This document shows, one piece after another, positions 8,897-49,030 of a stretch of DNA of 52,388 bases; positions within the stretch are counted from its first letter, which is position 1; every line of letters begins with the position of its first letter. A model generated the notes under the pieces. It saw only the letters and a list, made by a program, of their open reading frames with translations. It was not told the DNA's origin and made no database searches. Location of the stretch: the NCBI GenBank assembly GCA_040383945.1, contig JBEICN010000003.1, positions 1 through 52,388 of the forward strand, written 5' to 3'. A program made the position numbers and the translations under genes. This stretch comes from Candidatus Peribacteria bacterium (GTDB taxonomy: Bacteria > Patescibacteriota > Gracilibacteria > BD1-5 > UBA2023).

Positions 8897-8975
8897 GCGG
8901 GGGTAACATAAAAGAGCGAGTGTACTAAGGCTTCAACCCTTGGGTGTGCCGGTTCAAACCCGGTCCCCCGCTCCA
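8897..8975 (+). tRNA. tRNA-Gly(UCA), decoder of TGA as Gly
   Basis: Acceptor GCGGGGG/CCCCCGC, U73, encoded CCA; anticodon loop CT-TCA-AC; T arm GCCGG-TTCAAAC-CCGGT; short variable loop; Gly identity elements G1-C72, C2-G71, G3-C70, U73. Confidence 0.92.
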
Positions 8976-45244: not shown

Positions 45245-47014
45245 CTACATTTTATTTGGAAGCGGAATGGCTAATATTTTGAAGGCTTCTGCCATCGTTG
45301 TGACCGTCTGATGAACGAGACTGAGCCGTATAGCCTTGAGATCTGCGTCTCACTCTTCTAGGAGTTTCGGCGTGTGAACATAGAAACTCGAAAATGTCGT
45401 CGCAAGTTCATATGCATACATCGCTAAGTGATGAGGTTTGTGGCTTTGGAGCATGCTATCGATGACCTCTTCTTTTTTGGCGAGGAGTAGAATCAGATTT
45501 TTATCAAATGGACTCAAATTGCACGAAAAACTGGTTGGTAACGTAACATCTTGGCCTGATTTTCCCAGAATATTTTTGGCTCGAACATAGGCATACTGTA
45601 TATATGGGCCTGAATGTCATTCAAAATTCAGAGCTTTATCCCAATCGAACACAATGTCTTTTTCACGATCTGACATGAGGTAGGAATATTTGATAGCACC
45701 GATAGCAATGGCTCTGATATTGTCTATCTCTAAGATAATTCCTTTTTTGGCGAGGAGCGCGTCCACTCGTGATATTCCTTCATCTATGAGCGACTGAAGG
45801 CGAATAATTTTCCCCGAACGAGTTGACATGGCCCCATCCTTTAGCTTGATGAAACCGTTTTTTGCTTGTGTAAATTTTGGAACCGTGATAAGTTTTTTCC
45901 CCCAATCTGATTTTTCGATCCACCATCGAGTTACTTCAAAGAGTTGTCGAAAATGAAGCTCCTGTCGTACGTCCACGCAATAAATAATATGCTCTGGATT
46001 CCAGCCATTGGTCATACGGTAACGAATACCAGCAAGATCCGATGCAAGATACCCATGTGTTCCATCACGCTTTGCGAGAATACAGGAAGGCAACTTTGTT
46101 GCTTCATCAAAAACTATACCTACAGATCCATCTTCGTTTTTGGTCGCAATACCTAGATTTACAAGTTCTGCTACTACATCTGACATGCGTACTTCCAATT
46201 TTGGGTAATCTCCAAGTGTTGGCAATCCCAACCCTTCATAAAAGGCCTCTCAGATCATAACATCTGGAAATACCAAAAGTTGCTTGCCCAGCTCCAATGC
46301 TTCGGATATGGTTTTTTTGGTAAAATCTAACCATAGACTCACCATTTCAGCATCTCAGAGGGAGAGTTTTTTGAAGGCTTCTCGGTAGGCATCTGCTATG
46401 GTAGGATCTGTTTCTTCAGCGGCCGTAAGTTTGACATAGACCTCCAAAAGATGTTCCACCGCATCATGCTCTAGTGCTGGTGCTGATCCAAACATATGGT
46501 AACCTACTATAAGCTTGCCGAAGAAACTTCCCCAGTCACCCTGATGCATATCACCAATAGTCGTATATCCACGATGTCGGTAAGCATTGATGATAACCTG
46601 TCCAATGGAAGGAGCGCAGAGGTGTCAAATATGAAGGGGTTTGCCTATGTTTGCTCCAAAGTAGTCTATAATTACAGTTTTTGAGGCATTAACTGATGTA
46701 TCATAAGGAGTACTACACCATAGAAGCAACTCAACGAGGCTTGAATCTGAAAATCTCACATTTACGTATCAGCCCATAGCGTTGGCAGAAATACCCTTGG
46801 TATTTTCATTTTGGGAATGGGAAATCTCTATGGCAATTTGGTTTGCTAGCTCAGCTGGATTTACGCCAATGTTTTTTGACAGTCAAAAAACTCAAATGGC
46901 AATATCTCCAAGCTCGGGCTTTGGAGGGAGTCCGAAAGTAAGCGCAATAGAATCTCCGGTATCTGGATATAGGTTTTTCACAATATCTAGTAGTCGTGCA
47001 TAAAGAATGTGCAT
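45245..47014 (-). CDS. argS: Arginine--tRNA ligase
   Basis: GANIGKPLHIG(TGA)HL (HIGH), GDWG, KRDGTHGYLASDLA, MSTRSG, FEG(TGA)HSGPYIQYAYVR. Confidence 0.96.
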
Positions 47015-47294
47015 AGGTTGTGAATAATCTATTGAATTTTTTCGTATGTAATATACTGTTTTTGGCTTACAGTTCAAGTTATTTTCGTATTAAAATTTTG
47101 TTCAATATTGCTATTTTCTTCGATTTTTTTTCAATTTTACGGGTCGAATGATTTTTTATATTAAAAATAAGTATTTCTTTACAGCACTGGTTTATTGATA
47201 GGTAAATTTTATTTAAAAGTATTATTATAACATAGTCAATATCTTAATTGTGGTAGCCTTTTTCAGAATACGATATTATACATTTGTACCCAAC

Positions 47295-47758
47295 GAAGTA
47301 GAACATCTATCTTCATCGGGACTGCTCATTAAAAAATCTTACTCTGCAAGAATGGCGACGAGAGTTGTTCTCTACTAGCCTCCAACAAAAATAAAAATCA
47401 ACACCGACTGCGATATATATCAAAGTCTCTTTTCTATACAAATAGAAAGCGATGTTACCGAAAGTCTGATAGGACTTTGGCAACCCGTTTCCAAACTCAG
47501 ATTTTGGGTAACATCGCTTTCAAAAAATAAAAATACAAATCGCAAAGGCGAAGATGGCGATCTATAAATTCCTGCCCAAGCAAAGTAAGTCTGTGTTTAC
47601 ACAGTCGCTCTCACAAAGCACTCCTACTTGTGCTTCTCCGTTACTTACGAGCCTTTAGCGCTCATCTTGGATGAAGTCAAGAGTCTTCCGAAACTCGGAT
47701 ACCGTCTACCAAGACAGCCAGTTTCACTTCAAGTCCCCGCCCAGCGGGGACTTTTTTT
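47295..47758 (+). ncRNA. Candidate large structured non-coding RNA (about 460 nt) with terminator
   Basis: End-to-end pairing, perfect 15-bp internal stem, many short hairpins, no long ORF seen, strong intrinsic terminator at 47731-47758. Confidence 0.55.
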
Positions 47759-47830
47759 GTGCCCTGTCGGGAGTGATAAAAAATACGGTATCAATAGTGG
47801 AGATACCGTAAGTGAGACGAGAGCCTTTGT

Positions 47831-49030
47831 CTAAAGCTTTCTTTTTCTCGCCTCAAGAACAAGGCGTTTGGTTTTTTGCGTCTCGCTAATAATTCTTCAG
47901 TATACTTCGACAAATTCAATACCCTGCTGTTTGCTTAAGTCTATAGCCTTTTTGAAATCTTTACTTGAGCTGGAATGTCATTGCATGGAAAAACTCAGTG
48001 AATAGGTTTCTTTTAATGATTCAAGTTCACTTATGAGCTGCACATAATAGCTCGGCCCCACCTGCTTTGATCTATTGAGAAAGTACTCAACAATCTCTCG
48101 ACATTTTCGTTCCATTTTTTCTTTTCCCTCTTTGTAAGTGGCGGACTGTTTTTTTTCAAGGAGTACATATGCATCAATATTGCGTATGTTTGAAAGCGTA
48201 TCGGCTAATTTTTTTAGGAAGGTGATATCATCGAGTTCCCAGAGTATTTTTGAAAGATATGCCTTGTTTCGCATTGCCTTCGCATGCATTTGTAGTTCGG
48301 GCTTTGCGGAAAACAACTCTCGCATTTTCTCACTTTCACTATTTCACGACATATTGATCCAAATTTCATCATTCCCTTTTTCTAAATGCCTTTTATCCAA
48401 TGCTGGCTTGGTCAAATCTCTCTCAACAGTTTGTATCACTTTATTCCCTCCATATTTTACGAGATGTTGACGCACTCTTTCTGGTGTCTGCCATCGTATT
48501 TGAGAACTTCTGTTTGCTTTGTGAAATGAAGGGTCTTCTATAGCATCATGCGCAGCTATTTCTTTAATGCCTTGCAGGGTGGGTTTGGGATCATTTTCCA
48601 AATAAATATACACGGCTTCCATCCAATGACTAAATGCGGAGTAACCACTGCGACGTTTCGGAATAAGTCCCGATGTATTTGAGAGGCTTCTCAGAAATAA
48701 CACAAATTTGAGAAGATCTTTTTTGAGATTGTAGCATTCACGATCTGATTTTCCGGCAAAAAGCTTGTCTCGGTAGACGACAAATACCAGACTTTCAAAG
48801 TCTCGTATTGCGTCAGTCGTATCGAGATATCGAGGGTTATGGATGCGGTTACGGATTTCTTCAAGTAACTGAGACCACTTTGGATCATTTCAACCAGAGA
48901 TAAGCTTTTCAAATCCTCCTCGAACGCCTCTCGCCACATTCTTAGCCATTCAAAGCGCACCAACTACCAGTTTTCGTGGTGAGTATGGTGGAGTTCGCTT
49001 GGAATTAGACCGAGACAATATATGTTCCAT
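47831..49030 (-). CDS. HD-domain protein resembling a RelA/SpoT (p)ppGpp hydrolase domain (399 aa)
   Basis: KRRSG...SH, AAHDAIED, LTK and KKLADTLSNIR motifs in order; one frame from ATG 49030 to TAG 47831. Confidence 0.75.

Follow-up and report, generated by a model that had tools for sequence, protein, structure and literature searches.

The window analysed here, a stretch of 52,388 nucleotides (nt) of contig JBEICN010000003.1, is contig 3 of the 1.03-Mb genome (69 contigs, 95% complete) of a Candidatus Peribacteria bacterium, designated G000. The long reading frames of the window stay open only if TGA is read as a residue (genetic code 25), and the order of Candidatus Gracilibacteria that hosts the element described below appears to read TGA in this way. 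Between argS (- strand, ATG at 47014) and an HD-like open reading frame (ORF) of 399 codons (- strand, stop at 47831) lies a gap of 816 nt, as stated in an initial annotation made from the letters of the DNA only. The gap contains, on the + strand at 47286-47758, a gene for a structured RNA of about 470 nt that would extend from a 5' end at GTACCCAA to the U-run of a terminator; conservation begins and ends at these borders. The initial annotation had suggested an undescribed large non-coding RNA (ncRNA) with its own terminator on this strand. Its observation is confirmed and its interpretation is supported, in that the element is conserved, covarying, single-copy and without a match in Rfam; the architecture that it had drawn needs correction.

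Conservation, strand and relation to known RNA families

A blastn search found the element once in G000. Full-length homologues are present in all five other species of the genus, with 69-83% identity over about 500 nt, and in another genus as well; fragments were detected in more genera. Taking all searches together, two families of the order contain full-length homologues, in many of their genera. The order was sampled in three families, here called f1 (the family of G000), f2 and f3. RNAalifold predicted 97 pairs from seven close sequences, 30 of them with compensatory changes. When the comparison was extended to 22 f1 sequences, 40 consensus pairs in nine helices were retained, and 95.2% of the 875 cells (one pair in one sequence) were paired, versus 43.8-47.0% if the 3' partners were slid by 1-3 columns. 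Changes on both sides of a pair occurred at 27 of the 40 pairs, versus 9-13 for slid partners, and none of 500 shuffles reached any of the covariation measures. The sequence and about ten helices of the RNA are thus conserved with compensatory changes.

The checks proposed with the initial annotation had included folding against shuffled controls, a scan of Rfam and a search for covarying homologues in Gracilibacteria, and all three came out in its favour. The minimum free energy of the + strand was -137.4 kcal/mol, as compared to -100.4 +/- 5.3 kcal/mol for 100 shuffles (z -7.0). With z -6.3 the fold of the - strand is good as well, and energy alone therefore cannot set the strand. The covarying pairs can: 833 of the 875 cells pair when read on the + strand versus 766 on the - strand, and 75 cells are G-U. 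Together with the -10-like box and the intrinsic terminator, these G-U cells fix the + strand, in agreement with the preference that had been read from the G-U pairs of the single sequence.

No known family was matched at the locus. At the gathering score of Rfam 15 only two tRNAs were found in the window, and at E <= 10 the locus gave only chance matches of the hairpin or terminator type (<= 20 bits). Nineteen homologous loci yielded a single tRNA at E <= 0.01. The models of OLE, ROOL, GOLLD and raiA did not match the locus even at E <= 10; rRNA, RNase P and intron models matched neither the locus nor the 19 homologous loci, and T-box or other leader models gave nothing at the locus beyond terminator-only matches below the cut-off. 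RNase P RNA (RF00010; no match at the locus at E <= 10) is encoded at contig 21:14714-15099 with 166 bits, and tmRNA (RF00023; none found by ARAGORN in the window) at contig 8:16615-17055 with 70 bits, so that the earlier statement that the RNA is neither of the two proved correct. The suggestion to locate the housekeeping RNAs elsewhere in the genome succeeded for these two RNAs and failed for 6S RNA and the RNA of the signal recognition particle (SRP).

SRP RNA was considered and rejected. No SRP-family model matched the locus; across the order, RF00169 had no match in any of 41 genomes, and RF01854 none in the one genome searched. The SRP proteins were missing too (0 of 41 genomes for the M domain of Ffh, PF02978; 0 of one for the SRP54-type GTPase domain of Ffh and FtsY, PF00448), and for this reason the RNA cannot be taken for an SRP RNA; nor does its presence track the order-wide loss. 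Judged from these searches the whole SRP pathway seems to be lost in the order, and an account of Vampirococcus (PMC8080830) mentions the loss of two SRP subunits there and in many other bacteria of the Candidate Phyla Radiation (CPR). The 6S RNA model (RF00013) matched neither the locus nor any of 40 genomes; it was positive in only 5 of 14 control genomes, and its absence therefore says little. A cis-acting T-box or other leader was likewise dismissed, the RNA being transcribed away from argS and towards the convergent HD-like gene, with a different neighbour in f2. In summary, the RNA is not RNase P RNA, tmRNA, SRP RNA or a member of any other Rfam family. The full-text literature that we searched holds no description of it, with the limit that preprint supplements (bioRxiv) and subscription journals were beyond reach and that candidate-motif lists there may bear on novelty. 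In our judgement the RNA constitutes a new family without relation to any described one; its general kind, the large ornate bacterial ncRNA, has precedents.

Architecture, distribution and genomic setting

The RNA begins with hairpin P1 (GAAGTAGA…TCTATCTTC, 47295-47314), for which RNAalifold gave eight pairs in seven sequences, two of them with compensatory changes. By analogy we take its position to be the one that boxB occupies in rRNA leaders. Directly after P1 follows a boxA-like motif, GCTCATTAAAA (47324-47334), a putative NusB/NusE site that is discussed below. The central domain is closed by P3, a long-range helix of 10 bp between CTTACTCTGC (47338-47347) and GCAAAGTAAG (47580-47589), with compensatory changes at six of the ten pairs and 97.7% of cells paired in 22 sequences. 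It encloses P4, a first A-rich linker, P5, P6, a second linker, P7 and a joining strand ending in …CCTGCCCAA. P4 (47354-47380) consists of a GGC…GCC stem and an inner variable stem (47361-64/47370-73) and was recovered independently in f2, where seven of eight pairs show compensatory changes. Linker 1 (AACAAAAATAAAAATCAAC, 47384-47402) is nearly invariant as CAAAAATAAAAAC in f1 and f2, and linker 2 (AAAAAATAAAAATACAA, 47522-47538) is conserved in both families; the initial annotation had noticed this repetition. P5 (47406-47427) has compensatory changes in all four outer pairs, but only 78% of its cells are paired. P6 (47445-47521) is a long variable hairpin with an internal inverted repeat, the base of which is, in this genome, the perfect 15-bp stem (47445-47459/47507-47521) reported before; its base, middle and top helices each covary, while the apical part varies in length.

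P7 (47539-47561) is the hairpin to which the distribution figures below refer. Its ATCGC/GCGAT stem has compensatory changes in four of five pairs and 99.1% of cells paired in 22 sequences, and its conserved 13-nt loop, AAAGGCGAAGATG, has the core GG-N-GAA; a counterpart with a GGTGAA loop exists in f2 and in genome G205 of another order. The joining strand CTATAAATTCCTGCCCAA (47562-47579) carries the first copy of a YNCCCAA motif and is invariant or nearly so in AAATT..CCCAA. P8 (CTGTG/CACAG, 47591-47604) shows compensatory changes in all three pairs counted. The 3' domain (47627-47681) is formed by P9 (47627-39/47669-81, one bulged U) around P10 (GAGC/GCTC, 47649-63). Compensatory changes were found in nine of the twelve P9 pairs, but only 69.8% of its cells are paired in the unrefined MAFFT alignment; inspection of the rows by eye revealed register-shifted equivalents in other genera. 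An alternative pairing, P2, joins GATGA (47670-74) to TCATT inside the boxA-like motif (47326-30, + strand), with 96.4% of cells paired and only wobble changes within f1.

Hairpin P11 (GTCT-ACCA-AGAC, 47704-47715) presents CTACCAAG, the second copy of the motif, here in the form YTACCMAA. TCTACCAAGA is invariant in seven close relatives; in other genera and in f2 the YTACCMAA motif stands in the loop of the terminator hairpin. The gtct/agac pairing of P11 had been listed in the initial annotation, and it is present, and invariant in the close relatives that cover the pair (six of seven); it shows no covariation, with 54.5% of cells paired in 22 sequences. Pairing of the CTACCAAG loop with tRNA D-loops was considered and found too weak, an 8-mer complement being present only in tRNA-Cys of 35 tRNAs; 7-mer complements of the CCCAAG motif occur in two other tRNAs. 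The gene ends with an intrinsic terminator (47731-47760; 10-bp stem, loop CCA, T-run) that is conserved with one compensatory pair, and T-runs follow the hairpin in relatives. The GC-rich 10-bp terminator had been recognised correctly (47731-47753, seven of ten pairs G-C).

All segments listed in the initial annotation, aagcac/gtgctt among them, are present in the sequence at the coordinates given there. Of its helices, the large hairpin, the terminator, atcgc/gcgat, ctgtg/cacag and gagc/gctc are backed by covariation. The closure of the molecule does not hold. Two helices had been proposed to close it, and neither is conserved among relatives. The segments 47295-304 and 47721-30 can pair at nine of ten positions (one G-U), with the 5' arm forming a local hairpin instead, and cttcatc (47311-17) and gatgaag (47670-76) are perfectly complementary. 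The stems actct/agagt and gtaagt/acttac also lack conservation. The bases of these discarded helices are used in 47338-47347/47580-47589 and in 47627-39/47669-81 or 47326-30/47670-74.

The f2 sequences are AT-rich and align poorly. From an alignment of 13 of them (MAFFT, RNAalifold) no helices emerged other than P4, P7 and the terminator hairpin, which has the YTACCMAA loop; compensatory changes were present in 17 of 23 pairs. Because of the poor alignment, P2, P3 and P9 in f2 are a reading of single sequences. Most hallmark motifs were found in a shared order at all seven f2 loci inspected, namely a 5' motif of the boxA-like or TCTTTAA type, A-rich linkers, the P7 loop and the 3' YTACCMAA loop.

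The distribution was determined with a covariance model of the 100-nt core (R1, 47521-47622), the figures hence resting on the P7 region only. Of the 151 genomes sampled in the order, 41 were matched by R1 at E <= 0.01 (f1 22/66, f2 17/65, f3 1/19). A second model retrained on 32 sequences (R2), which shares the P7 core, matched 8 of 10 f2 genomes. Outside the order, 4 of about 136 genomes of the class sample matched marginally and none of 150 genomes of the phylum sample did. The only convincing outlier is G205, with the shared linker, the P7 hairpin and the P3 complementarity. Marginal matches in G207, G185 and G170 outside the order and in G014, G038, G009 and G017 of genera without the RNA were rejected as coding DNA or simple terminators. 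A 22-nt motif of the family was found in 13 species records (11 titled Gracilibacteria), in nine metagenome contigs and in no viral contig. The family is real but patchy and, as far as searched, confined to one Gracilibacteria order and at least one outlier. Two R1 matches each, on different contigs or close together, were obtained for G118, G121, G140 and G112, while other positive genomes had one match. Duplicate copies, mixed strains in the bins or chance may account for the double matches.

The conserved neighbour within f1 is the divergent argS (11 loci) and not the HD gene; in four f2 loci the divergent neighbour is ligA. Downstream, an HD-like gene is present in the genus of G000 and in genus g12, or a radical-SAM gene is found instead. 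The RNA is therefore not tied to one protein gene. The neighbour had been described as a convergent gene resembling alarmone hydrolases. Convergence is correct, and counterparts of the gene in two other genera contain HD_4, the RelA/SpoT-type hydrolase domain, which the positional counterparts in G036 and G064 match; as between the genus of G000 and g12, the Pfam match to HD_4 is restricted to g12, and the window's own copy (47831-49030, - strand) has no significant Pfam HD match, its best being DUF6179 at 8e-5, below the cut-off, although it holds an HDAIED motif. A single-protein search detected the HD-like protein in 5 of 151 genomes, only in the genus and one other genus; the gene diverges fast, and the protein was dropped as a co-occurring partner as this rate of detection is uninformative and not evidence of absence. 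Housekeeping genes occupy the flanks read, where no reverse transcriptase, transposase or cas gene was found. As for coding potential, the longest ATG-started ORF on the + strand encodes 34 amino acids, as noted initially. On the - strand, frames of 71-160 codons are open under code 25 across 22 homologues; the reading frame and the extent vary from genus to genus, and the closest pair shares 72.7% amino-acid versus about 83% nucleotide identity.

Three side observations concern the same genomes. Genome G007, which lacks the RNA, has two argS-like loci (L107, L108) on different contigs. At 8897-8975 (+ strand) of the window ARAGORN predicts a tRNA-SeC with anticodon TCA, not listed by Rfam at the gathering score; in an organism that reads TGA as sense, this tRNA probably decodes UGA under genetic code 25. 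The 3' end of the 16S rRNA was read in G000 (contig 26:14440-14475) and at L115-L130; it is …GGATGGACTATCTCC… in G000 and in all 15 f1 and f2 loci read, and the usual …GGATCACCTCCTT in G205 of the other order; by its sequence, the 16S 3' end of the order is an altered anti-Shine-Dalgarno sequence.

Transcription signals and the boxA-like motif

Upstream of the RNA, two conserved elements were found in addition to the gene itself. A box (…AGTCAATATCT…, 47233-47252, + strand) lies about 35-50 nt before the presumed start in an alignment of seven species (A1) and takes the form GGCAATATCTC in other genera; possibly it is a promoter-proximal site, or one for a regulator, that the divergent argS uses as well. 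A -10-like hexamer, TATTAT (47274-47279, + strand), is located 6 nt upstream of the conserved GTAC start and is replaced by TACTAT or TATAAT in relatives; the block of columns around it is conserved as GATAYTATA in f1 and as GGTATAAT in f2. On the opposite strand argS has a sigma-70-like promoter of its own (47050-47077, TTGAAC-16-TATATT).

The longest invariant block in f1, CTCATTAA, lies about 40 nt from the presumed 5' end and contains the boxA-like motif. The motif GCTCATTAAAA differs by one mismatch from the boxA consensus GYTCTTTAANA given in PMC5725501, a gamma-proteobacterial consensus. Among 40 members of the family, the homologous 5' site matches this consensus perfectly in two, with one mismatch in 31, with two in six and with three in one; where there is at most one mismatch (33 members), the fit is equalled by no more than 3.5% of shuffles of the member's first 130 nt. 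The rRNA operons of the order offer a comparison. Leaders and 16S-23S spacers of f2 contain perfect GTTCTTTAAAA or GCTCTTTAAAA, one f2 leader has GTTCATTAAAA and thereby shares the unusual A of the RNA, and the f1 leaders read GCTCCTTAACC. These sequences show that the boxA consensus holds in the rRNA leaders and spacers of f2 and is slightly altered in f1. Homology of the RNA to rRNA leaders or spacers beyond boxA was looked for, and the 6-9-nt matches obtained were attributed to chance. NusB (PF01029, 61 bits) is encoded at contig 28:1760-2143, and NusE (S10), a universal ribosomal protein, is presumably present. We consider it an even bet, or slightly better, that the boxA-like motif serves as a recruitment site for NusB/NusE and that the RNA is made in the manner of rRNA.

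In 6 of 14 f2 members tallied (e.g. L064, L067) there is a second boxA-like motif, such as GCTCTTAAATA with one mismatch, at the 3' strand of P7, shortly ahead of the strand …TTACCCAAGG. rRNA operons carry two boxA copies. The second f2 motif could be meaningful or mere AT-richness.

Possible function and related systems

We propose that 47286-47758 (+) is a free-standing gene for a highly structured, trans-acting ncRNA of about 470 nt that is synthesised in the manner of rRNA and acts as a scaffold, and we assign this combined reading a probability of roughly 0.6. Transcription would start at the conserved -10-like promoter. Hairpin P1 and the boxA-like motif would then recruit NusB/NusE and hence give rise to a Nus-modified polymerase. 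Such a polymerase keeps the 5' region near its exit channel and aids the pairing of distant strands. Because Rho was not found (see below), the main benefit of the Nus complex would be that synthesis is fast and processive and that P3 and P9/P2 fold during transcription. The intrinsic terminator would release the RNA, and the mature molecule would be a stable scaffold, the invariant single strands of which bind a protein or RNA partner. Candidates for such contacts are two ARN-like A-rich linkers, the GG-N-GAA loop and the two YTACCMAA copies. Synthesis in the manner of rRNA is moderately supported, a scaffold with partner-binding motifs only weakly. A bolder version of the proposal appears unlikely to us. 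It would make the RNA a fourth stable RNA, about 470 nt long and produced by the Nus/boxA machinery that otherwise serves only rRNA, and operating as a machine specific to the lineage, either a ribonucleoprotein or RNA only. This machine might be catalytic or associated with the ribosome, in cells whose SRP and Rho are lost and whose genetic code and anti-Shine-Dalgarno sequence have both been rewritten.

Several observations weigh against the scaffold proposal or parts of it. Some f1 genera are negative (two of them with 0/13 and 0/10 genomes), and lax searches there gave only spurious matches; f3 has no convincing member, and the f1 genera without the RNA have no gap upstream of argS. A family distributed so patchily speaks against an indispensable housekeeping role. 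The boxA-like motif is an AT-rich sequence of only 11 nt, and this 1-Mb genome contains 154 sites that fit the consensus with no more than one mismatch, while its own rRNA leader motif has two mismatches. The RNA-binding domain of Rho (PF07497) was found in none of 13 genomes (G000 and 12 relatives, three of them single-contig), so that the classic anti-Rho rationale for boxA is not applicable. A consensus scan of the + strand found no canonical sigma-70 -35/-10 pair, and the promoter is therefore deduced from conservation. P2 and P9 are mutually exclusive pairings of the 3' domain, and their conflict may indicate a switch or an alignment artefact. One freshwater metatranscriptome run, in which 5% of the sampled words occur, contained a 191-nt contig covering 47511-47699 that must come from a relative as its likeness is about 91%; its presence in an RNA library is a weak sign of expression and could be due to DNA carry-over. 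Finally, tRNA complementarity and co-occurrence with the HD-like protein pointed to no partner.

Among the alternatives, an RNA-only homo-oligomeric assembly, for which PMC12286853 offers a precedent in OLE, ROOL and GOLLD, would explain the conserved loops as contacts between subunits. The size class, the ornate multi-domain architecture, the own promoter and terminator, the lack of an associated protein gene and the narrow, patchy range are all in line with this analogy; inspection by eye revealed no conserved self-complementary loop, however, and there is no Rfam similarity to the three RNAs. We regard such an assembly as improbable. A large ribozyme or an rRNA-like extra RNA of the ribosome, with its boxA-led synthesis reflecting a role in translation or RNA processing, is still somewhat harder to credit. 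It would account for the rRNA-like signals and for invariant unpaired nucleotides within a covarying scaffold, and it would suit a translation apparatus that is atypical in this order, as judged by the unusual 16S 3' end and by SRP and Rho not having been found. Yet no catalytic motif was recognised, the rRNA, RNase P and intron models did not match, and a patchy presence in f1 that does not follow the order-wide loss of SRP fits a core part of translation poorly.

The remaining possibilities appear weaker. 6S RNA measures about 185 nt and is rod-shaped around a large central bubble, and an RNA of about 470 nt with many branches is very unlikely to be a divergent form of it or, by analogy, a decoy for Nus factors. 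The slot would be open, given that 6S RNA was found in 0 of 40 and SRP RNA in 0 of 41 genomes, and the 5' motif resembles a protein-binding site; the 6S result is weak for the reason given above (5/14 controls), and the SRP option is removed with the failure to find Ffh and FtsY. A cis-acting element is largely refuted, whether it is pictured as a T-box-like argS leader (- strand) or as a region that serves the HD-like gene as 3' antisense or terminator. The proximity to argS in 11 f1 loci and the stable fold of the - strand (z -6.3) had spoken for it, whereas the 75 G-U cells favour the + strand, the promoter-like box and the terminator point away from argS, T-box and leader models did not match, and in f2 the neighbour is ligA and the downstream genes vary. 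Least credible of all is a small-protein gene or an ncRNA of a mobile or defence element (retron, omega or bridge RNA, tracrRNA). Frames of 71-160 codons on the - strand of 22 homologues would suit the former; they differ between genera and are less similar in amino acids than in nucleotides (72.7% versus about 83%), and a single-copy element with housekeeping flanks free of reverse transcriptase, transposase and cas genes, the 22-nt motif of which occurs in 0 viral contigs, does not look mobile.

Very few bacterial ncRNAs longer than about 300 nt have a conserved, intricate fold, and to our knowledge each of those found (RNase P, tmRNA, OLE, GOLLD, ROOL) has led to new biochemistry or a new RNA architecture. 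The present RNA stems from the CPR, the RNA biology of which is almost unexplored. Its borders and strand are defined, as are about ten helices and the invariant motifs, and more than 40 sequences are available, enough for it to be synthesised and examined by probing, cryo-EM and binding assays without cultivation. In addition, an 816-nt region counted as intergenic in many Gracilibacteria genomes is recognised as a gene. If the boxA-like element is what it seems, it would extend Nus-factor-dependent synthesis to a stand-alone ncRNA and provide a handle on the co-transcriptional formation of long-range helices in a bacterium without Rho.

Of the known systems, RNase P RNA and tmRNA are in a similar size class and also have long-range closing helices, but both are encoded elsewhere in the genome above the Rfam cut-offs. 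6S RNA is, as the present RNA would be, an abundant-type stand-alone ncRNA gene with its own promoter and terminator; it differs in length (about 185 versus 470 nt) and in its rod-and-bubble instead of multi-branched shape, and RF00013 does not match. The likeness to OLE, ROOL, GOLLD and raiA is found in a length of several hundred nt, covarying helices around invariant unpaired bases, independent genes and a narrow, patchy range. In contrast to these, the RNA described here matches none of their Rfam models, occurs in CPR/Patescibacteria, carries a boxA-like 5' element and was seen with neither an associated protein nor a phage context. The comparison with antitermination in rRNA leaders and spacers concerns the mode of synthesis. 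boxA sequences before non-rRNA genes are described in PMC5725501, the search of which, according to its own account, left out non-coding RNAs. The present RNA differs from the rRNA systems in having no rRNA similarity, in a genome where Rho, the usual target, was not found, and its motif is a boxA candidate by sequence. What it shares with them is a hairpin that is followed, some 40 nt into a long, structured and untranslated transcript, by an 11-nt boxA-like motif, in a molecule in which long-range helices join segments that are 240-350 nt apart.

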